Assembly: GCA_964019335.1 (NCBI GenBank)
Contig: OZ025648.1
Coordinates: 744,001 to 808,000 of the forward strand
Direction of reading: 5' to 3'
Origin: Diplonema japonicum
Lineage: Eukaryota; Protista; Euglenozoa: Diplonemea
Length of the DNA stretch: 64,000 nucleotides
Below are positions 1,206 to 62,703 of the stretch, in pieces. The position numbers and the translations under genes were made by a program. The notes beneath the pieces were generated by a model. That model did not search any database and was not told the origin of the DNA. It worked only from the letters and a program-made list of their open reading frames with translations. Position 1 is the stretch's first letter; each line of letters opens with the position of its first letter.

Positions 1206-1327
1206 ATAGATGTCCCCCCCCCCCCCCCTTGTTGTCTTTCCTTAGTGTTTGTTTGTTTGTGTGTTCCATTCTTTTTCTGTCTTTGCTGCCACCTCCCCAC
1301 ACACACACAACAGTCGACACGTTCAAC

Positions 1328-14168: not shown

Positions 14169-14272
14169 TTTGGCAATCTGCTTTTTCTTTTTCCCCTTCA
14201 CTTTTTGCATTTTTTTTTCTTTCTCGTTCTCACTACCCTACAGTTCACTTTCTCAGCAACGACTGAGCAGAC

Positions 14273-18819: not shown

Positions 18820-18847
18820 CATTATTTACCTTTTTCTTCCGTTTTAG
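18820..18847 (+). promoter_or_regulatory. Candidate trans-splice acceptor (pyrimidine tract + AG) upstream of array copy 2; recurs at +4610 and +9220
   Basis: ..tttacctttttcttccgttttAG lies 38 nt before the ATG. Similar pyrimidine-AG sites precede the genes at 9417, 32457 and 60066. Confidence 0.45.
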
Positions 18848-18885
18848 TTCAAAAAAAAGAATCAAAAAAAATCAGAAGACACACG

Positions 18886-26400: not shown

Positions 26401-26783
26401 TGATGATGAAGGACACGAACGCGGACGTGCGGGAGGTGATCAACGAGGCAAGAGGGGGCGGGTTCGGGGTGGAGCTGAGGCTGGGTGGCGGGGGCCACGA
26501 CCACTACATCAAGATCGAGCCGGAGGAGCTGGAGCAGGCCCGGGCCGGGACCAAGACAGAGTTCCTGAAGATCAGCGACACACGCAACGCCCACGCCCAC
26601 ACCGTGATGGTGGTATACGACCGCACTGCAAAGAAGTGGAACCTCAAGGCATGCAATCAGAACAACAACTTCGTCCCTTGCCCAGCCAGCGTCATCGCCT
26701 CCGGTGGCTGCGCCTCGTCCCCCGTCAACTGCTGCGCAGGGAAGTGCCCCGACGGACACTTCTACCTCGCACCGCCATTCTGA
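23496..26783 (+). CDS. Same secreted protein, array copy 3 (1095 aa)
   Basis: Translation identical to copy 2, offset exactly 4610 bp. Confidence 0.88.
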   Translation: MSFTRVGTVLAVASMVGCQCTGMGGPWYDSATEDVMTVSEAGCVLSSKYGKVRVTGKKVSPEGGLLAAIGVEGQWDSFGSRIKWSNGVTWTKKVGTEELLTELRDLKDKHSDAMGRIDALETTVTRLSSCCNSTSPGTPTSPADVDALKQSLDDLSERVDLLNKSRTGPAGRDGYCMTTPNTTEVYVPKQVFVHNRYTPTSTCTGETVNDDGCRWSFHMEKVLNIRVGDTLVFWRHDSKVHDLWEFQTEAAFDGCDFSKATLRVGSTEFASFEDTRNYTMTFTAAGDHFFGAKFPDSMVTNEVKKRELCWDPTDPPTGAVAGQMLGFGEGSKITIRVLDPTKEEMVTCPLYDPSKYGVKDGKAADSESVEKLKGTVAALGRQLILAEARTAERVREQGQSGLTLTRSVEQGSDAYYEPSYGSMGAANIHNHANTHHTIGLGEFGAVLNGVQFTTRHNDYSLVQPDPTLSPDDYKSEWPPKASAIEGPEVPPAVLGAGTVPEQVAEMREWFKAFHTQNKTHRNYPDYFKPVLCYLEGTWAEPAEEVAEPFNSERHHIDADSWMDLHEKLNFMFNNGQKHILENLAFLPTAIRGIREGTVFEPREAQWFYRISCRPVKNDIPTERFRVKNDLHVQMKQYKPATRKELGSTPHALFEMNPKLQADWAPGAKWKRGATTMEYVDELMSDIPGFDGPQASLMTDESFGVLCETLNGTTTLDTARYTRHFSLGHIDAMGRTAKRRGFNDYLFAAQTTHPKVSPLTTCGNPDFDGRNTVAPDPVDTARQAECQKITTREGCTTTWEAAEVKAAEGAKCSWAGAKVGCIYKKCWTQRWSYAIPLEVVYLTPLLKWNPYNIEYHEKKTPGYDAVKKMTTNTGLSPGTPFKGSRQDLFFRTPAELFKDQLHPDPADSSGGETFVEDKNGVVRKTRASGTWVFTPEIEGVGAVRTRYPVFPVHEHGNTVWKEAKAVADLVMMKDTNADVREVINEARGGGFGVELRLGGGGHDHYIKIEPEELEQARAGTKTEFLKISDTRNAHAHTVMVVYDRTAKKWNLKACNQNNNFVPCPASVIASGGCASSPVNCCAGKCPDGHFYLAPPF

Positions 26784-28105
26784 TAGAGGCCATAGTGATG
26801 AAGTGAAGGGGAAAAAAAAAAAGTAAAACGAATCATAAACCAATTCCTGTATTTTTTTTTCTTCCGATTATGTTTTTCTTTCCATTCGTTTTCTTCCCCC
26901 TCCAAGTTTCATTTGTTTTTGAACGGCTGTAGCTGTGATGTAGCATGAGCTTAAGGTTCGCTGTTCGTGTATCACCAACCCCAGTTTTTTTTTTGTTCTT
27001 GGATAATCAAGTAAGACTGGTTTGGGGTTCTATTGTTTAAGAAGAAGAAAAAAAAGAGAAACAAATGATGAATAAAGACAAAGGAGAGGAAAGGAGGCAG
27101 AAGAGAAGGGAAAAGAAAACCAACAAAAAAAGAAGAAGAAAAAAGATAGCGTTGTAATTTTAATTTTACCCTCTAATATATCCACACAGAGCTCTTGGGT
27201 GGGCTTTGGGAATTTTTGGATGTCAGTTGAAGATTTAGATTTTAGAATCCAGCCTTTTTAGGTGTGAATTTTGATTCTTATGATTAAAAAAAAGAACAAA
27301 GAACAAAGCAGGATATTCCAGAACACATGGTTTAAAAAAAGAAGAAGAAGAAAATGGGGGAAAACAAAGCAGCCATTGTGGATTGGTGTTGTGGGTTGCT
27401 GCTAACACTTCCCACCCTGTGACAATTTTATCTCCCCCCCTTTATTTTTGCGGCATTATCTTTGATGTCATAACTTTGCAAATATTCCTCTTTTTTTTTT
27501 AATATTTTTATTTTATTTATTTTCTATTTATTCCCTCCCTCCTATCTCTGCTAAAAGAAGAAGAAAATGTAAAGAAAATAAAGAGAAAAACAAAAGGGAT
27601 AACCTCTGCTGGATTTGCTTTTTTTTTTTCTTCTTTCTTTTTCCCTTTTTTTTAAATGCATGCTTGTACCCCCCCCCTTCATTCCGAGGCCTTGTGGTCA
27701 GAGATCGAGTGTAAAACAAAAACTGAAGGAAGGAAAAGGAAAAAAAATCTGAAGAGGGAAAACCCCCCCCCCCGAAAAAGAAGAAAGAAGCGTCGTGGTA
27801 ACGCAAAAATCGTAAAATAATTTCTGTTTTTTTGCTGTTATCCTCTCCTTCTTCCTCTTCTTCTTCTTCTCCTTCTTCATCCTTCCCTTACCTTTCTTTC
27901 TATTCCTCTTCTTTTATTTCAAGATAAACATGAAAAAAAAGGACTAAGAAAATACCAATAAAATGGCGTCATAAAACGCCACACTCGAGACCTCCTCCTT
28001 CGCTTCCCCTTCCCCTTCCCCACTTACTACCGTGTTGAGCATTATTTACCTTTTTCTTCCGTTTTAGTTCAAAAAAAAGAATCAAAAAAAATCAGAAGAC
28101 ACACG

Positions 28106-31100
28106 ATGAGCTTCACACGGGTCGGCACTGTGCTTGCAGTGGCCAGCATGGTGGGGTGCCAGTGCACCGGGATGGGTGGCCCATGGTACGACTCCGCAAC
28201 AGAGGACGTGATGACGGTGAGCGAAGCGGGGTGCGTGCTGAGCAGCAAGTACGGAAAGGTTCGCGTGACGGGGAAGAAGGTGTCCCCCGAGGGAGGACTG
28301 CTTGCCGCTATCGGTGTGGAGGGCCAGTGGGACTCCTTCGGCTCGCGCATCAAGTGGAGCAACGGGGTGACGTGGACGAAGAAGGTCGGCACCGAGGAGC
28401 TGCTGACGGAGCTGCGGGACCTGAAGGACAAGCACTCCGACGCGATGGGCAGGATCGACGCTCTTGAGACGACCGTGACGCGTCTCTCGTCGTGCTGCAA
28501 CTCCACTTCACCTGGGACGCCCACTTCCCCTGCTGATGTCGATGCCCTGAAGCAGTCCCTTGACGACCTGAGCGAGCGGGTGGACCTCCTGAACAAGTCG
28601 CGCACCGGCCCCGCAGGCCGCGACGGCTACTGCATGACCACCCCGAACACCACCGAGGTCTACGTCCCGAAGCAGGTCTTCGTCCACAACAGATACACCC
28701 CGACCTCGACCTGCACAGGGGAGACCGTCAACGATGACGGCTGCCGCTGGTCCTTCCACATGGAGAAGGTGCTGAACATCAGGGTGGGCGACACACTTGT
28801 CTTCTGGCGCCACGACTCGAAGGTGCACGACCTGTGGGAGTTCCAGACAGAGGCCGCCTTCGACGGATGCGACTTCTCAAAGGCGACCCTGCGTGTCGGC
28901 TCCACCGAGTTCGCCAGCTTTGAAGACACCAGAAACTACACCATGACCTTCACTGCTGCGGGAGACCACTTCTTCGGGGCGAAGTTCCCCGACTCAATGG
29001 TCACCAACGAGGTGAAGAAGAGGGAGCTGTGCTGGGATCCTACAGACCCCCCCACCGGGGCTGTCGCGGGGCAGATGCTCGGGTTTGGTGAGGGCTCGAA
29101 GATCACGATCCGTGTCCTGGACCCCACGAAGGAGGAGATGGTGACTTGCCCGCTTTACGACCCCTCGAAGTACGGTGTGAAGGACGGGAAGGCCGCCGAC
29201 TCGGAGTCTGTGGAGAAGCTGAAGGGGACGGTGGCCGCCTTGGGGCGCCAGCTCATCTTGGCGGAGGCGAGGACGGCGGAGCGGGTGCGCGAGCAAGGGC
29301 AGTCCGGGCTGACGCTGACACGGTCTGTGGAGCAAGGCTCCGACGCCTACTACGAGCCGAGCTACGGGTCGATGGGGGCGGCGAACATCCACAACCACGC
29401 GAACACACACCACACGATAGGCCTCGGGGAGTTCGGGGCTGTCCTGAACGGTGTGCAGTTCACGACACGCCACAACGACTACTCCTTGGTGCAGCCCGAC
29501 CCGACGCTGAGCCCCGACGACTACAAGAGCGAGTGGCCCCCGAAGGCCTCTGCGATCGAAGGCCCGGAGGTTCCTCCGGCGGTGCTGGGCGCTGGGACGG
29601 TCCCCGAACAGGTGGCCGAGATGAGGGAGTGGTTCAAGGCCTTCCACACGCAGAACAAGACGCACCGGAACTACCCCGACTACTTCAAACCTGTGTTGTG
29701 CTACCTCGAGGGGACGTGGGCGGAGCCAGCGGAGGAGGTGGCGGAACCCTTCAACTCCGAGAGGCACCACATCGACGCCGACTCGTGGATGGACCTGCAC
29801 GAGAAGCTGAACTTCATGTTCAACAATGGACAGAAGCACATCCTGGAGAACCTTGCCTTCCTCCCGACCGCGATCCGCGGGATCCGCGAGGGGACCGTGT
29901 TCGAGCCACGCGAGGCACAATGGTTCTACAGGATCTCCTGCAGGCCGGTGAAGAACGATATCCCGACAGAGCGGTTCAGGGTGAAGAACGACCTGCACGT
30001 GCAGATGAAGCAGTACAAACCTGCGACGAGGAAGGAGCTCGGCTCGACCCCTCACGCCTTGTTTGAGATGAACCCGAAGCTGCAGGCGGACTGGGCACCC
30101 GGGGCGAAGTGGAAAAGAGGCGCCACTACAATGGAGTACGTGGACGAACTGATGTCGGACATCCCTGGGTTTGACGGACCACAGGCGTCACTCATGACGG
30201 ACGAGTCGTTCGGGGTGCTGTGCGAGAACGTAAACGGGACGGCAACACTCGACACATCACGGTACACGCGACACTTCTCTCAGGCAGGCATTGACGCAAT
30301 GGGCCGCACAGGCAAGAGGCGTGGCTTCAACGACTACCTCTTCGCAGCACAGACGACGCACCCGAAGGTGTCGCCCTTGTCAACCTGTGGGAACCCCGAC
30401 CTCGACGGGAGGGGCGCGGTGGCCCCCAACGCTGACGACCAAGCAAGGCAGACAGAGTGTGCATCCATCTTCGAGAGGAAACTGTGCGTCGTGAAGACCT
30501 GGGAAGGAAACGAAGTACAAGGAGCGGAAAGCGCAAAGTGCTCATGGCTTGGCTTAGCTGCCGGCGGCTGCATCTACAAGAAGTGCTGGACGCAGCGCTG
30601 GTCGTACGCGATCCCCCTCGAGGTCGTGTACCTCACCCCACTCCTGAAGTGGAACCCTTACAACATCGAGTACCACGAGAAGAAGACCCCCGGCTACGAC
30701 GCGGTGAAGAAGATGACAACGAACACAGGGCTCTCTCCAGGGACACCCTTCAAGGGAAGCAGGCAGGACCTGTTCTTCAGAACCCCTGCAGAGCTGTTCA
30801 AGGATCAACTGCACCCGGACCCCGCCGACTCGTCGGGGGGCGAGACCTTCGTGGAGGACAAGAACGGGGTGGTGAGGAAGACGCGGGCCTCGGGGACCTG
30901 GGTGTTCACCCCGGAGATCGAAGGGGTGGGGGCCGTGCGGACGAGGTACCCCGTGTTCCCTGTCCACGAGCATGGGAACACGGTCTGGAAGGAGGCAAAG
31001 GCTGTGGCGGACCTGGTGATGGGCGACAAGAGTGGTTACGTAAACAGGATCATCAACGAGCCAAGAGGGGGCGGGTTCGGGGTGGAGCTGAGGCTGGGTG

Positions 31101-31396
31101 GCGGGGGCCACGACCACTATGTTCGCGTTGAGCCGGAGGAGCTGGAGCAGGCACTGGCTGGGACCAAGACAGACTTCTTGAAGGTGAGCACAGAAAGCAA
31201 CGCCCACGCCCACACCGTCCACATTCAGTACGACGGTGCTGCAAAGACATGGAAAATACTCACATGCACTCAGGAGGGAAATTGGGTCGCTTGCCCAAGC
31301 GGTGTGTTCCTCTCTGGGGGTTGTGCTGCTTCACCTGTTGATTGCTGTGCTCATAAATGCCCAGATGGGCACTCAACCTTGGGAACGTCTTTCTAA
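28106..31396 (+). CDS. Divergent paralog/mosaic, array copy 4 (1096 aa)
   Basis: Matches the other copies up to 30227, diverges at 30228-30564 and 31022-31396, and matches in between. Confidence 0.88.
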   Translation: MSFTRVGTVLAVASMVGCQCTGMGGPWYDSATEDVMTVSEAGCVLSSKYGKVRVTGKKVSPEGGLLAAIGVEGQWDSFGSRIKWSNGVTWTKKVGTEELLTELRDLKDKHSDAMGRIDALETTVTRLSSCCNSTSPGTPTSPADVDALKQSLDDLSERVDLLNKSRTGPAGRDGYCMTTPNTTEVYVPKQVFVHNRYTPTSTCTGETVNDDGCRWSFHMEKVLNIRVGDTLVFWRHDSKVHDLWEFQTEAAFDGCDFSKATLRVGSTEFASFEDTRNYTMTFTAAGDHFFGAKFPDSMVTNEVKKRELCWDPTDPPTGAVAGQMLGFGEGSKITIRVLDPTKEEMVTCPLYDPSKYGVKDGKAADSESVEKLKGTVAALGRQLILAEARTAERVREQGQSGLTLTRSVEQGSDAYYEPSYGSMGAANIHNHANTHHTIGLGEFGAVLNGVQFTTRHNDYSLVQPDPTLSPDDYKSEWPPKASAIEGPEVPPAVLGAGTVPEQVAEMREWFKAFHTQNKTHRNYPDYFKPVLCYLEGTWAEPAEEVAEPFNSERHHIDADSWMDLHEKLNFMFNNGQKHILENLAFLPTAIRGIREGTVFEPREAQWFYRISCRPVKNDIPTERFRVKNDLHVQMKQYKPATRKELGSTPHALFEMNPKLQADWAPGAKWKRGATTMEYVDELMSDIPGFDGPQASLMTDESFGVLCENVNGTATLDTSRYTRHFSQAGIDAMGRTGKRRGFNDYLFAAQTTHPKVSPLSTCGNPDLDGRGAVAPNADDQARQTECASIFERKLCVVKTWEGNEVQGAESAKCSWLGLAAGGCIYKKCWTQRWSYAIPLEVVYLTPLLKWNPYNIEYHEKKTPGYDAVKKMTTNTGLSPGTPFKGSRQDLFFRTPAELFKDQLHPDPADSSGGETFVEDKNGVVRKTRASGTWVFTPEIEGVGAVRTRYPVFPVHEHGNTVWKEAKAVADLVMGDKSGYVNRIINEPRGGGFGVELRLGGGGHDHYVRVEPEELEQALAGTKTDFLKVSTESNAHAHTVHIQYDGAAKTWKILTCTQEGNWVACPSGVFLSGGCAASPVDCCAHKCPDGHSTLGTSF

Positions 31397-40144: not shown

Positions 40145-40860
40145 CTGTTTCAACGAAACAAAAGAAAAATCAGAAAGCATGCGGAGACGATAAACCGTAT
40201 TTGTACTTTAAAAAAAAAAAAAAAAAAAAAAAAGAAACGGAGGGAAATGTTCCCAAATCCAAAAGATTTTTGTCTTGGAGTCTTATTCCGATCCGAGATT
40301 AATTTAATTTCGTAATTTTTAATTTCTTTTCTTCCTTTAACTCTCAAGTTACCGTACAAACGCATTTTTTTTTTTCGTTTCTATAAATATAAATTCGGTG
40401 TACTCGGGAATAATAATAAAAAAAATAATAACTGCAATCAAAACAAAATCAAACCCCCCCCCAAAAAAAAGAACGATAAACAATCCTCCGGAAAGGTTTA
40501 AAAATTACTAAAAGAAAGAAAGAAAGAAAGAAAAAAGAAAATCCAATTACCCTTTTATCCTCCCGCAACACCTTCCTTTTTTGAGTGTTTCACATTTTTA
40601 TTTGTTACAGTTAAACCTCCTTCCTCAGACCTTCTATTGCAATTTTCTTCTTTTTTTTCTCTTCTTTCATCCCCCTACCTTTTTTTTTTTTCGTAACACC
40701 CTTCCCCGGGAAGGGTAACACATCAAACCAAAAAAAGAAAAAAAAAAAGCACGGGTGAAAAAAAAAAAGGAAAGAAAAAGAAAGAAAAAAAGAATATCCA
40801 TGCTCAAACTTGAGCAACTGACTCCCCATCATTTTTTTTTTTTTTTTTTTTTTTTCTTCT

Positions 40861-40898
<38 letters not shown>

Positions 40899-41043
40899 CC
40901 AAGATGCCCAGAACACACATCCACAGAAAACAACAACAAAAAAAAAAGAGAAAAAAAAAGAAAAAAAAAAACATATGTCGCGTAACGCATAACGAATTAA
41001 AAAAAAAAGTTTTTTTAAAAAAAAAAAATATTAAAAGGTAACC

Positions 41044-44000
41044 ATGAGTAGCGATGGCGATCTACTGATGGAGGTAGAGAAGATAACGGGGAAGGAGAAG
41101 GAAAAGGAAGCTGAAAACATCCTGCAGGAAATCTTGAGGGTAAGCACCCAGGACAGCTTTCCCTCAGAAATGCCCGCAAGAGAAACTACCACAACAATCC
41201 CGTCGGCCAGGGAACAGTCGTTGTACCTCGATCCAGAACTCTGCGACAAGCTAACGAGGATACCAAACGCGGAAAAAGAAAATTTCGTGCAGTACTTTCT
41301 AACAGCAATAGGCCACAACAGAGGCTCTCAGTCAGACGTTATCAAAGAAGCAACTACATGGATCGACGCAAACAGAGCAAATCAATCTGAACGCTCCCAA
41401 TCCGCCTTTACAGACCTCAAAATCCGATTCAGCGATGGGATCGACTACGCAAAATCCCTCGAAGGCCTCAGCAAAATCGATTTTTGGGGACCTGACTACA
41501 CACCCGACTGTTCAGTCAGAGAAATGGCCCAAAAACTAGAAGTCTGGAGCACCCCAAAAGGCAGGTGTTGGTCTAAAGAAGAAGTCGCAGATGTCATAAC
41601 CCTACAAAATATCGAATCGACTGTCATTGCTCAGTTTGAGAAAACCGCGATTCCCATCTACATCTACACGTCAGCGATGTATCGAAAAGTTCTCTGGGCT
41701 GTATGGGTACCCTCGCAGGAGAGGTGGTCTGAGATAAAATACCATGCAGAACTGGAGAAGGAGTACCGCCCTCACGAAAGATCCCTCACTATAAAAAGCA
41801 AAAAAGCACTGCGAGAAATCGCAGCAGCCTACAAGGTCAAGATGGAACACGTCGACCCCTCCCCTTCCCCCATCAAGGATCGATTCTACAATCTTGACGG
41901 ACTGCGAGGAAAGCTTCAGTCCGGTGACGTGTACTACCTCATACGCTCCACTGATGAATACGACTCCGTCTCCCCCATTAAAAATTCCGTAGCGTGGGTG
42001 TCATCACCTGAAATGTATTTCAACGACCCTGTGTTTGGAATAGATGCTTTTATGCCACCATCACGTGTTTTTGAGTATCTCGAATCAAGGCCGCGAGATG
42101 AGACAACTCACCGCACGCAATGGAACTGTAAACCAAAGGGGACATCGACAGGAGACGCGCTTATTAAGGAATGTTATGCGGAACCCAATCAGAGCACGTA
42201 CAATAAAAATTTGCATGCAAAGTTTATCCAGCTTCTCGACAACACCCCGTCATCGGGGAAGACGGCACCGCTTCGGTTGATTATGAACGAGAAGTTGAAG
42301 GATTCGGGGCAGAAACCCACCCCGCAGGACATCGCACACGCTTTGGAACTGCAGGAGCTTGAATGGTCGAACAACCAGGGCAAAAAAAAAACATTTGTAG
42401 TTGGGTTGTCGGGGTTCCCCCGTCTCATTGTCGACACGGCGTACCCCCACGCTTGCACAGACTTATTTCGTGTGTATCATGAGTGTATCGAACAACCCTA
42501 CCATCTTCTCAACGCCACCATGCGGAACGTGCAATCTGGTTCTGCTGCCGTCACTATCGATATCCGAACTAGTAAGTACCGTGGGCATTATGTGTGTAAA
42601 GAGGTGAACCCTCGTAAAGGAAACCCTGTCCCCCTCTATCAGGAACCCAACAAACATCGTGCCATCTGGAAGGAGAACGAAACGTGGTGTATTACACATG
42701 CGAACGGAAAATCCGAGTTTCATGTTGACTACGAGGACTGCAAGATGAAGATCGGGACATGGATGCTGGAAGACGTCCGCCCCCTCATGTGGTACCTCGA
42801 GAAGGGCCTTGAAAGCATCCCGCTTGAGAAAGAAATTGTTAAAAGCTATCGAGGTCTTGCTGATGTGACCCTTGCCCGGGACATATACAGCCCTGGCGGC
42901 CTTGTCATGTGGGGTGCGTACAGTTCAAGCTCAGCAGATCAAGCGACCGCCACGTGGTTCGCAATGCAGGAAGGCTCTGCTGCTGTGTTCACCCTACGCG
43001 GCCGAAGCTGTAAAATGATTGCTGATTATTCGAGATTCGCGCGTGAGATGGAATACCTGTACCCACCTAACATCTGTTTCCAAGTCAAAACCATGCTGAC
43101 GGAAGACCAGCAGCAGATCCTTGGCCGCGAGGGTCTCCAGCTATACGAACTCGACGAAGTGGATGACCTCGAAGCTCTGTCCATCTACATCACACAAAAC
43201 ATCAACTCCGCCATCACGGGGCAGGGCATGGGGTTGGTCAACCAGTTGGTCTCTGTGATCCAAGCGCTGGTTAACAAAGAACTGCTCGATGCACTCGAGC
43301 ACGCTGTGGCACCAAGCAAACCCCTGCTGCAAAAGGAGTACGGCATGGAGATGGCAAAGAGGCTGAAGGTGCTCGCCGAGCAGAACACGCTTCCCATCGA
43401 CGACGACGACAAAGACGGTGTCTCCGTTGTGCTGAACGACAGCCTGATCAGTGCCGCGAGCGATGGCTACAACGACGCTGTCGAGAAGCTCATCGAACTG
43501 GGTGCGAACTCAGACACACGATGCGCCGACGGGTGGTACCCAGTGGAGCACGCTCTCATCGGCGGGCACCTCAACGTCACGCAGCTCCTTCTAAAACATG
43601 CCAACCTCGGCACCGAAACGGAGTTTGTAAAGCACGTCGACGAGACAGGTTCCACACCTTTGCACAGGATGGCCGAGGCAGGGCATGAAAAGGCCGTTAT
43701 CCTCCTTCTGCGCATTGGGGCCGACCCTCTCGCGAGGAACAAACAGAAGCAGACACCTGCCGAGCTCGCCTTTGCTGGCAAGCACACTGACCTCGTCCAC
43801 CTGCTAAAACCCAGTCAGGTGCTCGGCGAGGCAGAGATGCAGAAGATGCGGAAGTACTGGCGATCGTCGCATTACTCCAGCGATGACAGGCGTTCGCGGT
43901 TCACAGAATCGGACAAAGGTGTGGAGTGTGTGCCATATGGGATCAGAACCTCGACGCAGGCGATGGAACAGAAGAAGACATCTGAGGACAGCTTTGCAAT

Positions 44001-47000
44001 TGCGGAAGGGCTGAAGCTATGGAGAACGCCGAAGGGCGAAGCGTGGGAAGGCGATGCTGTAATCGACCTTGTGGAGGACGCGAGGTGGACGGTAGGCAGG
44101 AAGGACGGAGTGGCATGGCGTGTAGCGGTGCCACTATTCATCCACACAGCCTCCATCTATCACACCACCATCTGGGCCGTGTGGGTGGCACAGCCCGAGC
44201 GTGTAATCGATGGGTGGTGGAAAGTCATTGAGAACACGGAAGACTTCGAGGGAGCCTTCGCAACGGAGGGACGGTCAGAGGACAGCCTGCAGCTCAACCA
44301 ACGCTGCGTCAACGCGATAGCAAACACCCTCACGAAGACCCCCGACGAGGTGCCCAAGCTCTTCCATGCCGTGAACCCGAAGACCAAACGAGGTCTCTAC
44401 GGCTTCACGACCACTAGCCCCGGCGAGGAGTGCACCGAGAAGGATCTCATCATATTTAGGTTCCGTGCAGGTGATGTGCAGGCCGCACGTTCATTCAGCT
44501 CGTGCGTTGCGTGGCTCCCCGCACCCGATAAAGCTTTCGTGAATGAAGACATCCTGCCGCTGTTCAGCGTGCTAGAATATATCTACTCGAGAACCCCAAC
44601 GGAGCCTCTAAAAGGCAAAGACGGCGGGAAGGGATGGGAATGCTGCCTTGCTCCTAGCAAGGACCTCCCGGACATCATATCCTCGGTCAGAACAAGGATA
44701 CGACAGCACAACCCGCAGACTTCTGATGAATCAGACCTGGAGTTGTACAAGGAGGTCGAAGAAAGAGTGAACAAGCTGGACAGCACACTGCTGACGGAGA
44801 CGTTCAAAGCGAAGATAAAACCGAGAAACGCACACGCGGACGACGTTGTCCCGACTCTGGACATGATATCCCAGGCGCTTGACATTCAACAACTGACGTT
44901 CAAAGACGGCGGCCTGAAGTTCATGCTTGCCTTGACGGGGCCGAAGAAGACGATAGCATACGAAATTCTCAAAGACGGCACTCCCGAAGTCAATGTCATC
45001 CACCTACACAGGGTATGCCGCCCTATGGGGTGCATGCCGTCCGACTACTTAGGGATAACCGCAGCGAACCTAATCAACGATCGAACGGAAATAAAACTGG
45101 AAATCGCGAAGAAAAGCACGATGGAGTACGCAGGTGTTTACAATCTGGTGCACCCTGGCGACGATGCCGAGTCTATGTATAACCAATCTCGCCGTGGAAG
45201 ACGCAGGGGTGTCAGGTCCACAACCACAGGTCCGATGTTAAACTCAACCCTGAGCTTCAGCGGCGACTTAGTAGGCTCGGAGAGTATTCATGCTTCCAAT
45301 GAGTTCGAAATTGAAGCCGACGAGTTCAGAAGGAAGGAAACGCCATCTCTGTCCGCTAGATGGTCTCGAAAGCGCGACGCATGGATCGTTATCACAAACT
45401 CCGGGAAACATGCTATTTCAGCGGAAGATGTTACCCTCCATCTTGGGAATTACATGACATCCTCTGTCCGGCCTCTTATGATGTCTGTTCAGTTCGCATT
45501 GGACGACATGATGATCGGGTCACGTCCGCCACCGTTGTACAGGGCTTCTTTAAACGCGAATTTAGCTAAGGACACGGCGATTATCTGGAGCTCGATGATA
45601 TCTGCTAGCGAGTCGCACACCATGGTGGAGTCGATGTTCAAGGAGGACGATGGGGCGACCATCTTCACGCTGTCGTGTACCTCTGCGAAGCCCATTTCTG
45701 ATTATTCTCGTTTCGGGCGTGAAATGGAATGGGCGGTGCCCCCCAACTGCGTGTTCGAACGGAAGGATGACAATCTCATCGAGGCGAACGACAACAGAGC
45801 GTTGAGCTTGTTCATTCAAGACAAGATCTCGTCGCTGTCTGCGAAGACAGAAAACTCCGATGTCATCAACCAACTGTTGTCCGCAAAGCAAAACCTAAAC
45901 CAAAACAACGTCCACAAGGCGTTGGAGATTATCTTGGAACCTGGCGATCCTGAAAGACCGGTATGGCATATGGGGGAGAAGGGAGAAGGGGGGGGGGGAA
46001 AGTTAACCACAGCTCATTGAGGACGATGACGGCTTCACAATCGCCAAAAAAACACTCCAATGCGGTGCAGACCCTATCTATGTCACCCGTGCTTTGTACA
46101 AGGCGGCGAAGGAGGGGTATTACAAGTGCGTCCCGCACTTGATGGAGTTAGGCGCCAATGTGAATGCAAAAGAGGACAGCATTGGGATGACCCCCGTGGA
46201 GCTTGCTATATTGGGAGGACACGAATATGTCATACAGGTATGTGGGGGGAAAAAAGAAGAAGGGAAAAAAACCAAACCTTTTCGTGCAGCATCTTCGATC
46301 TTGTTCTTCCGTGTCCATATCGCTCCCGGATGTCCGAAGCTACGCCGCGAGCGGTGAGGAGCTGGCTGTGCTTCTCATCCACACTTTGGAGAAAAGTGAA
46401 GGCAAGGCGGCGTCCGTACTGGTGGCGGACAGAGACGGGAAGTTTCCCATCAACCTTGCCAACGAGAACGGACACAAGTACACGGTCTACTTGTTAAAAA
46501 CTCTGGTACTGTCTTTTAAAAAAAAAAAAAAAAAAGAAGAAATCCACAACAACAGATGCTGGAAGTGGGGAAGTCCCTGCGTGAGATAGACAACGTGTAC
46601 TCGATGAGCCTCATAGACGTGCTGAGAGAGGCAATCGAAGCAGGGGAGAGCAAGGCGGCCATGGCCCTCCTGAAAACAATGGACAAGGTGCGGGAGAAAA
46701 ACGGGGTGAAAAACTGTCTGCACTACGCAAGCCAAAAGTTCACCCAAGGACAGGGGATACAGGTGCTGCGAGAGCTGACAAGAAAAGGCACACCACTCAT
46801 CAACATGATCGACCAGTCATCATGGTCTCCCTTGCGGTACGCAGTGGACGCGGGCAACACGCAAGCTGTGGAGATCCTTCTTGCAGCGGGTGCGAACCCC
46901 TACATCCCTGACAAGCATGGGAACCCCATCACAAGCCAAGCAAAGTCTGACGGAACTATAAGAGCACGCCTTCACGAGTATTTTGAAGACCGCTGGGCCA

Positions 47001-49141
47001 GCGCCCACGGTATTTACAAACACCTCCGTGCAGATGTGAAGGAAAAACTGGAGGAATTGGCGTCGATGTTCTTGCAGTCACCTGAAGAGCTTGTCGAAGT
47101 CCGCAAGGAATACCTGTTCTGGAGGGACGACAGGGGCAGCATCAACAAAGTTTGCTACAACTTCATCGCGAACGGGCCCAAGGGAGAGGGCGTGGACGAG
47201 CTCAGCGCGAGAATCACACAATGGAGGTCGCGATTTGAGAACAGCACCGAGAATGTATAATTTTCAAAAAAAAAAAAAAAATATTGCAGATTCAACTTCA
47301 CGAGACGACAAAGAGGAAGGACCTCACCAAAGCTTGGCTCGAAGCCTGGGACAGTCTCAAAGCCGACTCCGAAGCAGAGATGAAGTACATGAACGACATG
47401 CACCACGGGGTCACGCATGGTAAACGGTGGGATTTCGTGAGGATCGCGAAAGTGTTGAACTCGGTTTTATTGTTTCTCTCCGGGGTATGTTCCGAGAAAA
47501 AAGGAGGAAAAAAAAAAATAAATGCACAACAGTTCTACGTTCTCCTGTCTGTCCCTTACTACATTTTCGCAAACGAGGAGGTCGGGACGCTCTGCACGGC
47601 GATAGATGCTGTTCTATACAGTTTGTACGCTGTGAACTTTGTCATCAATATAAAGGTTAGAAAAAAATTTTAAAAAAAAAAAAGAAGAAAAAAAAAAAAA
47701 AAACCAGGCACGTCCTAACACGGTCGAGATCGACACCGCCTCGCCTAGCAAGGAGGAGAAGGACGACTCTCTCACGAAGGAGAACGACGCCGAACGCGAG
47801 GACCGCGTCACCCTCATAAAAATTACGTACCTCCGGAAAGGTTTGATGCTCGTCCCGATCCTCCCGCTACGCGCCTTCGGAACGAACCCTTTACTAAGAC
47901 TGAACCTTCTCCTCGGCTATACCCATTGCTACAAACTAAACGAACTCGGCTTCTTACAAGACAACGTAATGCAAATGTCATGGGTCCTCATGCTTGCTTG
48001 CTACGTCTCATATCTGACAGGACTTGTTCAACTTGCAGGCGAATGGGGTGTATGCAGCTCTGCCAATACTAGCGGTTTCTGGCAATGTCAATACTACACG
48101 TTAAGGCTCTTTGCAGGGTGGGATGTGTATAGAACCAGCACCAATGAAGAGACGGGCATCGTGGTACTAGCGGTCATTGTGACACTGATAGGGTTCGCAA
48201 CACGAGCGTTGTTCATAGCAGCGGTGATACGTTTGGTAGAAACGAGAAACCCCCGAAAGAAAGCTTACCGAGACAAGGTTGAAGAAGTACTAGACTGTCT
48301 ATCACACGCAAAGCCCGAGGTTCAACAAATCGCGCTAGACTACTACAAACTATGCTGGCGAACACGCGGTACCGTCGACCTCGTCCAGACCTCCGAGGTC
48401 CTCGGCCCGTTGTACCCCTTACTACAGTACATGGTGGAGTCCGCCACTGCAATCGAAGTTAAGATGAAAATCCCGCTTCTCAACAGGGTGACAATCGACA
48501 AGCTCACCGACGTCATCTCCTCCTTCAGGTACATGCTCGCTCCAAAAGGAGTGATGTTCTTTTCGCAAGGTGATGAATCGACGCACATGTATTTTATATT
48601 GTCAGGGTCGGTTGAGGTGTATGTGGGAAATCATTGTTTTGTGGCAAGACTGTCAAAAGGAGATTATTTCGGTGAGGTGGGGCTCATCACCAAAAGGAAA
48701 CGCAACGCATCGGTCATGGCAAGCTCAGATTGCGAATTATACCAATTCGACGAGGGTGCGTTCGCGGAGCTGTTGAGCAACAAAGATGTTCACTCTGAGA
48801 TCATTAAAGTGGCGTCGGATAGGAAACATGATTCTGATCCTATTCTGAACCATCTTGCGCTGCACACGCTTGACGACACTGAAGCTTTGTACTCCACCTC
48901 CTCGCAGACTGTGAACTGGGATCTTGACGGGGTCGTGTCGATCCGTTCTGCTGATTTCAACCATCCGCCCCCCCTTCCTTCGCAGCCTTTGATCGCCTCT
49001 CCTATTGCACCTCGTGAGCGGGAACACCGGAAGGTAAAAAAAGGAAGGTGGGTTAAACCCCGTGGGCACAGCCAGTCAACCACATTGACCAACCCCTCAC
49101 ATCCTTCTAACCCGTTGGCGCTCACCCATAAGCACACTCAG

Positions 49142-49174
<33 letters not shown>

Positions 49175-49281
49175 CGGGAAAAAAAAAAAAAAAAAACCAG
49201 AATGAAGGGGATCTCGAGTTGGCGAGCCACAGCAGCACCATGAGTGCTCACGGAGACGGGCATGTTTGGGATGAGGATTGA
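41044..49281 (+). CDS. ADP-ribosyltransferase / ankyrin / 6TM cyclic-nucleotide-binding ion channel fusion, ~2629 aa, 8 exons (41044-45960, 46013-46237, 46290-46505, 46556-47254, 47290-47484, 47533-47655, 47708-49141, 49201-49281)
   Basis: Seven 35-59-nt phase-0 GT..CAG introns join all fragments in frame. ART motifs YRG/YSSSS/EME and YRA/ISAS/EME. Ankyrin repeats, six hydrophobic segments, a C-linker and a CNBD (QGD..MYFILSG.V..GDYFGEVGL..RNASV). Confidence 0.82.
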
Positions 49282-50520
49282 TTTGATTTTTTTTTTCCCC
49301 CTTCTATGTCTATTACACGTTCCCTATGGCCATATATATATTATTTTTTTCCTTTTTTTCTTCTTTTTTTTTTCGTAGTGGTGGGAAACATTGGGAGTAC
49401 ATCAGATGTGTTGTTCGCTGTTTGACCTCCTTGTCGGTCATCACCGGTAACAACCTAGTGGAAGAACGTATTGCAGATGCTCAAGGTGACGAACAGGCAA
49501 ATTGCTGGGGTTGAGCTGCACACCGCACGCATTAAGGACGCGCCGCGGAATGCAGAACTCGGCCGAGGTGCGCCCCTGTAATCAACTGGCCTCCTTTATC
49601 TCACATATAAGTTATCGATTTTTTTTTTTTTTTTAATATTTAAGATCGGTGTGGTGTAAACCCCCTCGATTTTTTTTTCCCCCTTCTTTTGGGGCCATGT
49701 GGTTCTCTGAACCCGCCTCTAAAAAAGCAGGCGTGCGCGTCCTTTTTTTATTTTTTTATTAATTTTTTTTTTGCCTTGGAAATCACTTTAAATCGGCCTT
49801 TCCCATCCCCCCCCCCCCCCCCCCACCAGGATTGGCTTCGGATGTAGTTTCCTTTGGAAAAAAAAAACCAACGTCCTGTACAGTTCTGTAGGAGGGAAGG
49901 AAGAAAAAAAAAGAAAAAAAAAAGGGTTTCAAAGAATACAGGTTACAGTTTTTTCCCTCTTTTTTTTGACATCCCCCCCCCCCCCCCCGACTCTGCGAGT
50001 TGCTTTTTTTTCTAGCTTTTTTTTTAATACTATTGCACCTGAGTGAGTGAGAGGAAAGGGGGAAAAAAGGACAATAAAAAAAAACCCCTCTTACGCAGCT
50101 TTATTAGGAGGGTCCTGGTTATCTTCCCGAAAGGTTAGTAACGTACTCCTTCAAAAAAAAATGAACCTGTGAGCCCTCCCATTTTTTCTTTTTTTTTTTT
50201 TTTGCGCCTCAAAATCCCAGGGGAAAAAAAACCACCTTTTTTTCCCCCCGGGATTTCTCGAGCTAACTTTGTTCTTTTTTTTTTTTTTCCCGCCTAAACA
50301 TCGCCTTTTTTTATTTAAAAAAAACCAACCTTACCCTTCTCCCCGCCACTTCGTTTGCGTAGAACAAAAAAAAAAGAAAAAAAAAAGAAAAAAAAAAGTA
50401 TAAGACTCAGATTCTAAGAATTGTTTCCAACAAGGGGGTTTTTTCCTTGAGGGTTTGCCTATCTGTCGGTACATTTTGAATCGAATTTCTGAGTCTATAG
50501 AGAAAAAAAGGAAGAAAAAG

Positions 50521-57351: not shown

Positions 57352-58457
57352 ATGCACCCCAACCTCGTCACGATGTATGAAGGGTTCAAAAGGTACGACC
57401 AAGGGGGCACAGGCACTGTACGAGATGAAGTATTTCTCCGGCAAGTGAGGGATGCCAGTGGGGAAGTTCCTTCAGTCGAAACGCTTCTGCCGCAGTTTAG
57501 GTCGAAGGTATACCCAGGAAGGGTGGACTACTTGGGTTTTATAGAACACTTGAATGTGCTGGTTTCCAAGCAAGTCACGCAGCTTAAAGAGCAGTCCACT
57601 CTCCCCAGCGGCAGGGCAACACCAATGACGCCGACAAACTTCGTAGAACTACCACCTGAGAACCCTGTGGAGCACCAGCTGCAGACGCAGATCCTTCTTC
57701 ACCAACGGCAGCAGCATACACCGCCGAAACGTTATGCCCTTCCTGTTTCACAGCGGCGGCAGCGATCCCCCTCCACTCCGCAGCAGCAATACCAACCACA
57801 ACATCAAAACAAGCAACCACAGCACCATGCCCAGGACAGCCGTGAGGTGTGCCACCGCAACATTATATCATTCTAACTTACAACAACACAGTACCAGACA
57901 CAGAGGGAACGGGGTTTTCTTGAACCCGCAGAGGATGAGCGGCCGTCTGTCATTCCTATGAAGGTGCGGAGTGAGCAGCCACAGACCAGCATCAGCACAC
58001 AGCCCTTACCCGTGAAAGTGAAGGAGCCGCAGTTGTCGATGGGAAGTTCACATCCCTTGATGCAGAGCAGGCAAGATGTTGAAGCACCGCAACCTCAGCT
58101 GCAAGTGCACAGTGTCCCGTACGGCGCACAGGCTACTTCACATGCCAACACCAACCAGCAGGACGAGGATCGCACTCCCACCCGCTCCCTGCCTGCGCAA
58201 GAAGATGATCTGCCCATCAAAGCCCTTTTCAACCACCTTGATGCGTATGCACCCTTAACCATCACGACATAACAACAGCGACGGCGACGGAGTCGTTACC
58301 TACGACGAGCTGTACAATGCACTGAAGTCACGTGGCGTGGCACCTAAAGAAGATGAGTACGATGCAGCCTTCGAGCAGGTGGACAAGACTGCAGCAGGGT
58401 TTTTGAACTATCAGCAGTTTAACGGGCTGTTAAAAATGTTAGTGCCAGAAGAAGACG

Positions 58458-58491
<34 letters not shown>

Positions 58492-58566
58492 GCAGCAGCA
58501 ACAACATCAACAACAACAACAGCAGCAGCAGCAGCAACAACATCAACAACAACAACAGCAGCAGCA

Positions 58567-58598
<32 letters not shown>

Positions 58599-59845
58599 AG
58601 CAGCAGCAACAACAGCAGCAGCAACAGCTTCGGGTGCAGCAACAACAACAGCTGCAGCAATTGCAAGAACAAATTGATCAGCAACAGCAACTGAAACAAC
58701 AGCAATGGCAACTCCATCAGGAACAAAAGAGGCAACAGCAGTTACATCAACAACAACAACAGCAGCAGCAGCATCAACAGCAGCAGCAGCAGCAACAACA
58801 GCAGCAGCAGCATCAAAAAAAGCTGCAATCGTCACCGCCCCCTCGCCAGCCATCTCCGGGGCGTCCCAGCACACCTACGAAACGCGCTGAAGGCCTGTAC
58901 CCCCAGACAGGGAGGGCAGGCGAGGTCAACAAAATTATTAGCAAGCTGATGCCGTACTCTGGGAGGATCCTGCAGTTGTGCAACCTACAAGACCACACGA
59001 GGTGCGGGTACATCGCGCTGTCGAAGCTTCAGGAGCTGATGGGACAGTGCGGTGTGACCTTCACACATCCTCAGGTGCTGCTCGTAATGGGTGACAGGGT
59101 GAGCCGTAGCGAACCTGATCCGACAATCGACTACATTGACCTCATCAGTGTTATCATGACGCATGAAGCGGGGTGTTCTGCTGTGCCTGCTGTTGCTGTG
59201 CCTGCCAAGGCATCGTCGAGATCACCGTCGTTGGTGTTGTCGCCTTCCCCTACACCTGCACAGGACAGGACGCCACCTAGTCAGGTGAGAACACGGTCAA
59301 GGTCAGTGAACAGGGCGAGGAGCGTGGCAACCCGAGTGCGGTCTCCCTCACCAGCGATGATGCAGGCGAGCGTGAGCGACAGAACACAAGACGTGAGAAC
59401 AGTGCGGACTGCGATGAAGAAGCTGCTCGGTGGGGAAGCAGCCGTGAAGGTACATGCCGCGCTGGAGGACATGGTGAAGAAGGGGTCGAAATCTGCCCCT
59501 ATGGGTTACATGCGATCACAAGACTTCAGCAGAGCCCTTGCAGGACTCTACAAAGCGAAAGGACAGGACCCTATACGCAGTGTCATCAGCCAGGCCATAA
59601 AGGTCGGCAAAGTCCCCTTCTCTGTCATTGACACCCCCTCAAAATTTGAGGCGGCTGCCGCAGCCGCCGCTCAGTCTATCGCCCGTTCCTCTTCTTGCCA
59701 GCTGGTCGACTACCGTTACTTCCTAGCAGAGACTCGCTTGCAGCCCTCGTCTCCGTCAAGACGCACCCAACCACGCCTTTCTACTGTGGATGGGTATCGT
59801 GGTTTTCTCTCATCGCAGTTGAAGCCCTCTGTCCCGATGCCTTGA
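57352..59845 (+). CDS. Multi-EF-hand, polyglutamine protein; introns 57847-57891, 58245-58278
   Basis: Splicing the 34-nt intron creates the canonical EF loop DADGDGVVTYDE. Other EF-like loops are YDQGGTGTV, VDKTAAGFLNY and QDHTRCGYI. Confidence 0.85.
58460..58816 (+). repeat. CAG/CAA polyglutamine-coding tract
   Basis: ~120 codons dominated by CAG/CAA. Confidence 0.95.
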
Positions 59846-60065
59846 GCCTCATGCTGCAATAGAGCGAACCGATAGTTTTAACTGTCGAGAATACGGGCTT
59901 TTGGAGAAAGCCTAGAAGAGAAAAGAAAAAAAAAATCGGAGTAATTATTTAGACAATTTTCACCTTTCTCCCGTAGATTCTTAACTAGATGTTTATAGAT
60001 TCCCCCATACTTTTTTTGTATCGGTTTTCCGCCCAACACACCATCACTCAGAGGGGCTAGGTGTC

Positions 60066-62703
60066 ATGGATGCTGGCTCTGAAACTGTTGCCAATGTGGT
60101 GGGGGAGATGGCAGGAAAGAAGGGGTTGCGGCATGCGTTCGACACGGTGATGACTGGGATGCTGTCGGTGTGCGACAGGCAGGAACTGCACGCTGTGGTA
60201 TTGCAGTGGGCAGAGGAAAACGCAGTGCTTGCCCTCCCTCCTTTGGACGGGTCGGAGGGGTCAAGCACACATGACTACTACGAGTCGAGAAGCACCAGCT
60301 CTGACGAAGACAAGAAGAGGCAACAAACAAACAACAACAACAATTTCAAGAGTAACAGGATGGCCCTGATGCCCGTGTCGAAGCCTCAGCCAGCACAGCC
60401 TGTGAAGAAAGTACCTATGAAGCCGACACCGAAGACCCCGAACAGACGCCACCCTGCCCCCCGCTGCCCCCCATGGCTTGCCCATGCGGGGCTCCCCACC
60501 GACGGGTCCATCCCCTCTTCAAGTGAGATCACTGCGTTTGCGAACTTCGTGGGTGCAACTAACAGCGAGGTCTCGGCTAGGTCGTCAATGAGGATGTCGT
60601 TGCAGAAGCTTGTGCAACTTCTGGTGTGTCAGGAAGCTATCTTGAAAGTCATCGGTGGCTGGGCCTCCGGGTTGGCCACCTTCACCAGCACCCTCGACCT
60701 TGTTGTCGAAGCTCCCACCGAGACCAGCATTCTGGATCAGATCTCAACAGCCCTTCGTGACCTTGGCGTCCTGTCGGAGTTTAAGATGGTGAGCGGCTTC
60801 TCTGCGCTCCGTCTCTCGAGTGACGCGTTGGCCAGCGCCGTCTGGGGGCAGCAGCAGGTCCTGTCCCACACAAGCCGTCAGGTTCAGCAAGGCTTCGACG
60901 TGCTCATCTTCTCTGAATGCCCCGGTTCCACAGGGCCTTTCAATTCCCGCAGTGCTACCACCAGAATCTCCTCTCGCCTGAACAAGTACCCTGGACATAA
61001 GAAGACCGCGATCGTCATCCGCTCCATTATCGAGAAGACGAACATCGGTGAGCAGCAGGGTGGCGTCAACGGCTTCCTCATCCTGCTCATGTTCGTGGCA
61101 TTCCTCGAAGAGCACAAAACGCATTCCGAGATAGCCGACTCCGGTTGGGTGCTGCGGCAGTTCTTCCAATTCTACTCGTCCTTCTCTTACAAGACGAGAA
61201 CCATTGTCCCCATTCCCTCTCCAGGCACCTCTGCCTTCATCCCTAAAGTGGACCCCCAGTCGCAGCTCTCTATCATGGACCCTCTAGGCACGTCAGGTCA
61301 GGGCTACACACCGTACAATGTCGCCGCAGGCGTCACAAAGTTGAACCAGCTGACCGGTACACTGCAGTACATCAACATGTTGATCCTGAGGTACGACAAG
61401 GACCCGCGTGGCACACCGCTCCTCCCCAATCTGGTGGCGTGCGGTGAGTCGCTGTGGAAGCGCCACGCGTGGTTGCGCAAAGGTCTTGAGGTTACGAAGC
61501 CCCTCGCCGTCAGCGTAGCGCAGTGCGTGGCAGACTTCCTCGAGAACCCCGCAAACTTGCAAGCAAAGGAGGAACTGGTGAAGATAGCAGCATGGGAACC
61601 CATGGACAACTCACTGACCACAAAATTACAGCTCATCACAAAGGTTGTCAACCAGCAGAACTCGCCGCTTGCACATTTCAGGGAGCACGTCCCGCAGCTA
61701 GTGGAGGCCTTGGCGCAGTACAAGGACGTCCCAGAGGTGCAGGAACACTACCGCCGCTCAGTGAAGACAAGCGTGACGAGGGAGTTCGTCATCACCATCA
61801 CAAGGGAGATCGCGGACTTCATCACAGACCCCGCCAACTGCAAGTACAAAGCAGAACTGATGACAGTGACATTGAAGGCCGTGGACGAGGAGACCGCGAA
61901 TGAACGTGTCACGTTACTACTGGAGAAGGTGGCAGAACGCCCTGGGTCAGTGCTGAAGGAATTCAGGCCTGTGATGAAATCGCTGCTGAATACAATAAGC
62001 GTATCGACCCTGTCGGGTGATGAGGAACTGGACAAGCAAAACTTCAGAATCTTGCAGCAGATGGTGACGCCTGAGATGGCCAGCAGGGTCGCAGCAGAAG
62101 CAGCGGACTTTCTGGAAGAGCTGGCGAAAAGTGATAAAAGAGATGAATTCATGAAACAACTTATTGGTAACGGTGAATGGAGCCCCCGGCAGAACTTCAC
62201 TGCATACATCAGAATCTTCAACCAGATGAAGATGAGAGGCGGGACATCTGTCCTGTCTGGTGTGTCACCTAGTGTTATCCCTGTATTGGCGAAGGTTTTG
62301 GACGAATTCAGCGACTACCCGGAGGTTAGGGAAAATCGAAGGCGTGCTGCTGCCGCTTCCTTCACGAAGGATCTTGCAGTAGCCATCAAGAAGGACACGT
62401 TGGCCTTCATTGCAAGGCCCGACAACGAGAGATTCGTCACACAGCTTAAAACCAGCCACAAGGATATCAATGAGGAGCTGTTGAGGGCACTGTGCAACGA
62501 GCCTGGCTCGAGGCTGTCTGATTTTAGAGGAGAGAAGGGGATGGAAGAGGTATATTGAGGAGGATAAAAAAAAAATTTTTTTTTTAAAAATAAATGCGCA
62601 GCTCAACTGCCTTCTTAAACCGTTCAATGACGATCCTGAACTTCTTGTTGCCAACCAGCAGATAGCTGAATCCGTATTTGCGAATTTACGGCTTGAGGAT
62701 TAG
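60066..62703 (+). CDS. Trf4/PAPD5-like nucleotidyltransferase-fold protein (degenerate active site) with four C-terminal helical repeats; intron 62550-62601
   Basis: EITAF.NFV, VIGGWASGLATFTSTLDLVV, GGVNGF..LM, GWVLRQFFQFY, LSIMDP..NVA. The intron completes the last repeat. The start codon is uncertain. Confidence 0.75.

Follow-up and report, generated by a model that had tools for sequence, protein, structure and literature searches.

Can an enzyme that writes ADP-ribose and a membrane domain of the cyclic-nucleotide-gated channel type be parts of one and the same protein? The question is raised by a gene in a stretch of the Diplonema japonicum genome of 64,000 nucleotides (nt), the window of this analysis (contig OZ025648.1, positions 744,001 to 808,000; positions below are counted from its first letter). 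A sequence-only reading had proposed that seven micro-introns hide a 'chanzyme' here, in which a pair of toxin-type ADP-ribosyltransferases (ARTs) is fused to a cyclic-nucleotide-binding ion channel. We find that the fusion is a real, conserved architecture, apparently undescribed, whose sequences are public but unannotated. There is, in our judgement, an even chance that the protein is a membrane-anchored mono-ADP-ribosyltransferase serving in signalling, with cAMP or cGMP as the predicted switch of its activity or substrate access.

One spliced gene gives one protein. Joining its eight exons yields a single frame of 2629 amino acids (aa; 1639+75+72+233+65+41+478+26) with no internal stop, and all seven introns lie where they had been predicted: each is 35-59 nt long, starts with GT, ends with CAG and sits in phase 0 (Table 1). 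The 2629-aa protein P0007, a Trinity 'complete' open reading frame from EukProt EP01064 (Diplonema japonicum), equals the exon translations letter for letter in 8/8 slices; it possibly derives from the same RNA data as run X6 or X7. The seven introns are also absent from single 8-kb contigs of two studies, record 10 of X6 (8039 nt, study P2) and record 12 of X7 (8141 nt, study P3), both of which extend from 41039 to beyond the stop codon. GT..AG joints are listed for introns 1, 2 and 5. For introns 3, 4, 6 and 7, whose A/T runs are masked, the removal was read from contig offsets (skips of 50, 35, 48+52 and 59 nt); these four include the junction 47254/47290, which had been singled out for checking and is spliced in the contigs. 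In X2, which shares its sample with X6, introns 1-5 are retained in one 6699-nt contig. These comparisons cover eight of the 14 listed sequencing runs, with X11, X12 and X13 spanning the gene in patches; no run that holds the gene is recorded as RNA, and for X6, X7 and X8 the only reason to treat them as RNA is the absence of the introns.

The proposal that the introns hide the gene stands for one half of it. Exon 1 is an unbroken 4.9 kb containing both ART domains, so what the introns conceal is the link to the channel and not the ARTs themselves. Gene callers split the gene in genome annotations, which makes it easy to miss. Could the join itself be an artefact of polycistronic read-through or de Bruijn assembly, or two genes taken for one? 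The contigs are assemblies and not single molecules, and several of the models derived from genomes come in pieces or are short (P0011+P0020, P0014+P0169 and DIPPA_15853). However, contigs of two studies have all seven introns spliced out with the frame intact, the same fusion recurs in the transcriptomes of six species, two of the split models end inside intron 1, and low-sensitivity searches found no stand-alone channel homologue. Intron 1 holds a common position in the two Rhynchopus-like genome models in question, P0011 and P0014; both read into it and then stop, and their C-terminal pieces are the separate records P0020 and P0169, which lie on contigs of equal length to theirs. We regard an artefactual join as exceedingly improbable and reject the two-gene version.

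The fusion is ancient and has been conserved. Pfam matches to ART, ankyrin and cNMP_binding occur together in full-length proteins (P0007, P0008, P0012, P0015, P0019 and P0024) of six diplonemid species in four genera: D. japonicum, D. ambulator, Rhynchopus euleeides, R. humris, Sulcionema specki and Namystynia karyoxenos. Common to all six is the order ART, ankyrins (ANK), ART, ANK, six transmembrane helices and cyclic-nucleotide-binding domain (CNBD), and the fusion is present in both Namystynia and the Diplonema/Rhynchopus/Sulcionema group. Profiles built from the six orthologues, which show order and not independent detection, place N-domain, ART, N-domain, ART, channel and CNBD identically in 6/6. 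The sequence-only reading had the order right (ART1, ankyrins, ART2, ankyrins, S1-S6, C-linker, CNBD), but it missed both the duplicated N-terminal WWE-like domain and a large diplonemid ART family. In the D. papillatum genome paper (PMC10161547), DIPPA_15853 represents orthogroup OG0015862, a 'diplonemid gain' labelled 'hypothetical protein', with one copy in each of four diplonemids and none in the other 26 taxa. The DIPPA_15853 isoform P0021 runs from ART2 into endonuclease/reverse-transcriptase domains, and a retroelement probably lies in intron 1 of the D. papillatum gene; introns carrying retroelements are described in PMC10161547.

The suggested role in immunity or cell death is not borne out, and the idea of a toxin or immunity gene was rejected. 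The gene is single copy in 4/4 diplonemids of the published orthogroup table, ART1 evolves slowly and is strongly conserved, and of the 75 differences in runs X11 and X12, both from relatives, 36 of the 40 displayed are synonymous. The protein has no delivery domain and gives no sign of a toxin role.

How firmly is the enzyme identified? By its sequence, ART1 is assigned to the R-S-E class of ADP-ribosyltransferase domains, as had been claimed. It scores 41.3 bits with Pfam ART against a cut-off of 22.3, and its best PDB sequence matches are 6dre/6drh (E 0.0014) and 2gwl/2gwm (E 0.0034). In the printed alignments its R, SxS and ExE are in register with those of 6dre/6drh. We take 6dre/6drh to be Tre1 and 2gwl to be SpvB, both presumably arginine-specific. 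The ExE motif is a sign of arginine acceptors, and ART1 is thus predicted to transfer ADP-ribose probably to arginine. The R-S-E triad defines the ARTC type (PMC10789625). All motifs lie where the sequence-only reading had placed them: Y602-R-G at 42847, YSSSS at 42919 and E668-M-E670 at 43045-43053 in ART1, and Y1499-R-A at 45538 and E1560-M-E1562 at 45721-45729 in ART2.

Across the six orthologues no region of the protein is better conserved than ART1 (73% mean identity, 65/120 positions invariant). ART2 has a mean identity of 35% with 11/111 positions invariant, and its Pfam score of 16.6 bits falls under the cut-off. A 150-row survey, which excluded six records that were isoforms or near-duplicates as well as rows covering fewer than 65 of 84 columns, found R, S and E together in 10/10 ART1 rows, 5/10 ART2 rows, 71/81 paralogues and 45/49 other rows; the ten orthologue rows of each ART include near-identical pairs. 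The ExE is kept in all 20 ART1 and ART2 rows. What ART2 loses is the first Ser (kept in 5/10), while its Arg is present in 9/10 by hidden Markov model (HMM) column and 10/10 by eye; two ART2 rows are misaligned by the HMM and by eye have the Arg and lack the Ser. A PDB sequence search with ART2 alone was uninformative. In a quick ART tree (117 columns, half its forks open) the ART1 rows form one short-branched clade with an SH-aLRT of 95, and the ART2 rows are long-branched. Exon 1 contains a tandem duplication by BLASTP (ART regions 29% identical, E 6e-23; N-domains 23%, E 6e-12). The proposed 'ART pair' is therefore present but, judging from these alignments, asymmetric, with ART2 a relaxed or decayed copy.

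Ahead of each ART lies a family-wide N-domain, confidently modelled over much of aa 212-475 and 51% identical among the six orthologues over aa 306-500. In structure searches with VIA, WWE-domain entries make up eight of the top 50 rows (Z 4.1-5.2, within the tool's background range), seven of them on aa 215-308: HUWE1 (Z 5.2, root-mean-square deviation (rmsd) 2.9 over 66 residues), TRIP12 (4.8), RNF146, DTX1, PARP14 and PARP11. A 22-row alignment has one invariant W and a further W and E at at least 90%. Other methods returned little: hhalign of the N-domain against a five-row WWE alignment gave 0.43%, the N-domain profile had no match in the PDB, Pfam WWE matched 1/22 rows (E 0.024), Foldseek with module 1 found nothing at E≤0.001, and Atlas gave only leads scoring under 0.9. 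Next to ART domains, Pfam WWE occurs above cut-off in P0025 and below it in P0130, P0143, P0154 and P0158. On weak structural support, we lean towards a WWE-like, putatively ADP-ribose-reading fold before each ART.

Such a fold opens a reading in which ART1 is mainly an NAD+ glycohydrolase, and free ADP-ribose is a local messenger sensed by the WWE-like domains so as to gate the pore, much as in TRPM2. An ExE is what arginine transferases typically carry, and the closest relatives of solved structure are ARTs that modify proteins; together with the weak WWE assignment, this makes the reading very improbable, even with a WWE-like fold upstream of ART1. In its favour, PMC10789625 has some ARTC enzymes as mostly NAD+ hydrolases and WWE domains as readers of ADP-ribose.

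The C-terminal part of the protein comes from the CNG/HCN/SthK (CNBD) channel family, as had been proposed. Pfam cNMP_binding matches its CNBD with E 1.3e-19; the model of C-linker and CNBD aligns to SthK 4d7s with a VIA Z of 20.2 (rmsd 2.1 over 151 residues); and the orthologue fragment P0020 finds SthK at E 3e-13 over S6 to CNBD, followed by CNG and HCN. The membrane model has helices at 39-68, 74-96, 126-142, 157-173, 183-206, 217-231 and from 245, that is six long helices and a pore helix. Atlas linked S3-S6 to a cluster that is 31% Ion_trans (0.94, 181 of 256 features). The ligand site is well kept: the GE of the FGE motif is found in 6/6 orthologues, the phosphate-binding Arg in 5/6, and the C-helix Arg is invariant in the alignment. 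With FGE and R2457, the D. japonicum CNBD is of the liganded type by motif, a cassette that does not tell cAMP from cGMP.

Does the membrane part conduct? We consider this somewhat doubtful. The least conserved regions of the protein are S1-S4 and S5-pore-S6 (22% identity each; 4/141 and 3/98 positions invariant). At the filter position the six orthologues read LFAGWD, LFLGWD, NMLGRD, TLLGY, NMLGRD and ATSGW, with the Gly as the only common residue. The K+ filter consensus is TXGYGD (PMC3283738), and a TxGYG-type motif is found in 0/6 orthologues. S4 has a single invariant Arg; beyond it there are no more than one or two basic residues, scattered and with no repeat every third residue. With the TxGYG filter and the S4 Arg/Lys repeat both absent, a K+-selective or voltage-gated channel was rejected. 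Pfam Ion_trans does not match the D. japonicum protein and reaches 14.3 bits, below cut-off, in 1/6 orthologues. A four-copy prediction of S5-pore-S6-C-linker scored 0.17 against a mark of 0.32, and a PDB sequence search with S3-S6 alone gave a best E of 0.71. Word-based searches of low sensitivity for a stand-alone channel homologue yielded generic CNBD proteins, or a fragment of this very gene, and nothing else.

A true chanzyme, that is, a non-selective cation channel gated by cyclic nucleotide monophosphates (cNMPs), with gating linked to the ART through auto-ADP-ribosylation or a local change in Ca2+ or voltage, has to be weighed against these data. Six helices, pore helix, filter Gly, C-linker and CNBD are retained in 6/6 species; Foldseek gives an alignment of about 470 columns with HCN4 (E 9e-17) and also matches HCN1, SthK and CNG; the sequence matches of P0020 to CNGB1 and CNGB3 extend into the membrane part; and CNG channels conduct without a GYG. 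Against it, the filter differs between orthologues except for the one Gly, S4 is nearly stripped of invariant Arg, the Ion_trans match is isolated, a hydropathy scan finds three membrane peaks in the D. japonicum protein, and whole-model Foldseek TM-scores are about 0.3, a value explained by a pLDDT under 50 in S1-S4. We judge a true chanzyme unlikely. In its fullest form, to be read with equal caution, it would be the first cNMP-gated channel to carry its own ADP-ribose writer (ART1) and reader (the WWE-like domain). Within one tetramer, cAMP or cGMP would both open a non-canonical pore and activate arginine ADP-ribosylation in the cytosol, so that signalling by cNMPs, NAD+ and ions would already have been linked in the diplonemid last common ancestor. 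Of the original 'chanzyme' there remains a single peptide that joins the two halves, but this peptide has lost the filter motif and is least conserved in its pore.

Alternatively, the channel-like part could be an uncoupled tether that only localises the ART arm, with the ART constitutive or released by proteolysis and the CNBD serving assembly or trafficking only. The spacer from ART1 to S1 is long, most paralogues carry the module without a channel, and the TRPM6/7 kinase offers a precedent, being decoupled from gating and cleaved (PMC11479946). Yet the CNBD ligand residues are kept in 5/6 species, beyond what a passive anchor needs, and the fusion has been retained on both the Namystynia and the Diplonema/Rhynchopus/Sulcionema side. 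This makes an uncoupled tether quite improbable.

A cNMP-switched, membrane-anchored ART agrees better with the pattern of conservation: with ART1 tight, the ligand site and membrane fold kept and the filter drifting, an ART family member that gained a cNMP-sensing scaffold fits better than a channel that gained an enzyme. The membrane part would oligomerise like its relatives and keep the N-terminal arm, predicted to be cytosolic, next to the CNBD ring. The C-linker and CNBD would move when ligand binds, shifting the ring against the ankyrin arm. ART1 would be the writer, placing ADP-ribose from NAD+ probably on arginine, as its ExE indicates, and ART2 may be a relaxed or pseudo-catalytic copy for NAD binding or scaffolding. 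The WWE-like domains possibly read the mark as feedback, and any ion flow would be non-selective and secondary.

The wider family is consistent with this direction of change. The ART module recurs in 277 clusters at E≤0.001, of which the best 150 were examined. The named entries checked among the top-scoring members are diplonemid, and three weaker ART-only matches are euglenid. The same N-domain is carried by 81 paralogue rows, some with other partners: a tubulin GTPase domain (P0016), a kinase (P0107), a Cache domain (P0111) or WWE (P0025). Further groups have C-terminal or N-terminal membrane helices (P0054/P0060/P0069/P0083/P0089 and P0045/P0073/P0092). Among 166 proteins the channel profile matched only the orthologue set. 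A mobile module with such varied partners fits the picture of an enzyme family acquiring a sensor. As a separate observation, the ENA proteins P0130, P0143 and P0158 combine N-terminal membrane helices with weak ANK, weak WWE and ARTC matches, and form a distinct membrane-anchored WWE-ART type.

Several points weigh against a cNMP-switched ART, or against its universality. The channel part is missing from three Flectonema transcript models, from both D. papillatum models and from three genome models; two of the genome models end by reading into intron 1, but its absence from the Flectonema models and P0009 has no such explanation. An extra A behind 42381, in the A-run 42371-42381 of exon 1, is the only contig form in X7 and X8, both of the study-P3 runs compared. 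It would bring a stop 34 codons later, before ART1, so that the protein would end near aa 480; X6, X2 and X4 are identical to the window there. This form may reflect a homopolymer error or, in one culture line, a null allele; if real, it would make the gene dispensable in that culture. AlphaFold with a nine-row alignment left ART1 unfolded (pLDDT 24-40), and the ART fold is accordingly read from sequence. The CNBD Arg is lost in Sulcionema. ART1 and S1 are about 1400 residues apart, so any allostery would be long-range or between subunits. Low pore identity, on which the doubt about conduction leans, is not proof of its loss, because membrane helices often drift faster than enzymes and no control diplonemid channel of known function was compared. 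Enzyme activity, ligand binding and their coupling are all predictions.

Table 1. Features of the gene, with window positions and the evidence for each.
Feature	Position	Strand	Evidence
Candidate spliced-leader acceptor upstream of the ATG: long T tract, then AG	40835..40904	+	sequence
Complete gene from ATG to stop (8 exons; product of 2629 aa)	41044..49281	+	exon joining, contigs, protein match
Exon 1 (aa 1-1639): module 1, ANK1, module 2 through ART2	41044..45960	+	translation equals P0007 slice
WWE-like domain of module 1 (aa ~215-307; W218, W228, E238), a lead	41686..41964	+	VIA structure matches
N-domain conserved across the family, with helices leading into ART1 and a beta-rich insert; no named fold	41965..42753	+	identity and model
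ART1, R-S-E class (R603, S628-x-S630, E668-x-E670)	42754..43113	+	Pfam ART, PDB sequence matches, orthologue motif
Ankyrin repeats 1	43438..43818	+	Pfam Ank_2 E 2.4e-16
Module 2 N-domain, duplicate of module 1 including W/W/E pattern	44173..45080	+	BLASTP 23%, E 6e-12; N1 profile E 9.8e-30
ART2, apparently decayed copy (R1500, S1520-x-S1522, E1560-x-E1562)	45436..45768	+	similarity to ART1; Pfam below cut-off
Intron 1, 52 nt	45961..46012	+	listed joint, 3 runs
Ankyrin repeats 2 (exons 2-4)	46073..46942	+	Pfam Ank matches on exons 2 and 4
Intron 2, 52 nt	46238..46289	+	joint in X6, X7, X8; also X12 (another organism)
Intron 3, 50 nt	46506..46555	+	contig offsets
Intron 4, 35 nt	47255..47289	+	contig offsets 6102 to 6104 across 47254 to 47291
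S1-S4 (aa ~2068-2202, exons 5-7), one invariant S4 Arg (R2189-x-N-x-L)	47434..47938	+	four helices, model pLDDT <50; invariant columns
Intron 5, 48 nt	47485..47532	+	listed joint
Intron 6, 52 nt	47656..47707	+	contig offsets
S5, pore helix, S6; filter position LFAGWD, only G2262 invariant there	47966..48244	+	model helices, Atlas, alignment
C-linker and CNBD (FGE 2446-2448, R2457, C-helix R2497)	48245..48832	+	Pfam, VIA
Intron 7, 59 nt	49142..49200	+	contig offsets

Around the gene, the 3' ends of all seven cis-introns are rich in purine or A (55-95% purine), as against the long T tract before the gene (40835-40904), a contrast that may serve to distinguish cis from trans acceptors. Scanning the window for leader-like motifs, in itself uninformative, came up empty. 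Just 3' of the gene, at 49396-49560, many short contigs pile up in all four runs compared, with a summed depth in the thousands; the element is single in the window, and a dispersed repeat or a mitochondrial insert are candidates. Elsewhere, 14267-31396 holds four tandem copies (period 4610 nt) of a Cys-rich protein of about 1100 aa with a signal-peptide-like start; the first three are 100% identical over the stretches compared, and the three scanned have no Pfam match. One 1064-aa frame at 9390-12584 combines TatD DNase, Mut7-C RNase and non-canonical poly(A) polymerase/TUTase domains. Other frames are a 1368-aa one with four CAP-family stretches (1169-5275), a 528-aa one with an EF-hand (58259-59845) and an 857-aa one with a weak MTPAP-like palm match (59985-62558).

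How does the protein compare with known systems? The familiar channel-enzymes are CFTR, TRPM6/7 and TRPM2 (PMC11479946). Like the diplonemid protein, TRPM2 (NUDT9-H), TRPM6/7 (kinase) and CFTR unite a channel-type membrane domain and an enzyme in one chain, and TRPM2 also ties its channel to ADP-ribose metabolism (same source). In contrast to them, the diplonemid protein, a putative channel, has a CNBD-family scaffold and an N-terminal enzyme predicted to write, not hydrolyse, ADP-ribose. The comparison offered at the outset, with TRPM2 and TRPM6/7, missed a closer precedent: the adenylyl cyclase/K+ channel fusions of alveolates (Paramecium, Plasmodium ACalpha), where a protist six-helix channel-like domain is likewise joined to a signalling enzyme. 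Conduction by these fusions is backed by only one study (PMC3283738). The alveolate proteins make cAMP and have a GXG after transmembrane domain 6, whereas the diplonemid protein has a normal pore position, a cNMP sensor and ARTs.

CNBD channels (SthK, CNGA/B, HCN and AKT1) share S1-S6, C-linker and CNBD with the diplonemid protein, which differs in its lack of TxGYG, its one invariant S4 Arg and an enzymatic N-terminus of 2000 aa. Its ankyrins precede the channel, unlike those of plant AKT1, which follow the CNBD. Among ARTC mono-ARTs, its R, SxS and ExE align with those of the type VI secretion system effector 6dre/6drh, SpvB (2gwl) and the vertebrate ecto-ARTs. Human ARTCs are luminal or extracellular (PMC10789625), whereas the diplonemid ART is predicted to be cytosolic and membrane-anchored. 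WWE-bearing PARPs and E3 ligases (PARP11/14, RNF146, DTX1, HUWE1 and TRIP12) likewise place a possible reader beside an ADP-ribose writer, but the diplonemid writer is ARTC and not PARP, and its WWE is not confirmed by sequence.

In the full-text literature searched, which covers few subscription journals and the supplements of one paper, we found no account of an ART-channel fusion, in agreement with the earlier statement that no described example was known. Channel-enzyme fusions are rare, and none found there uses an ADP-ribose writer or a CNBD-family scaffold. If the proposed function is true, the diplonemid protein would directly connect cAMP or cGMP with the ADP-ribosylation of arginine inside the cell, a reaction whose cytosolic eukaryotic writers are poorly known, and would exemplify in nature how a channel scaffold can be turned into the sensor of an enzyme. 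The locus also exposes a large unannotated family of diplonemid ARTCs in an abundant marine lineage.

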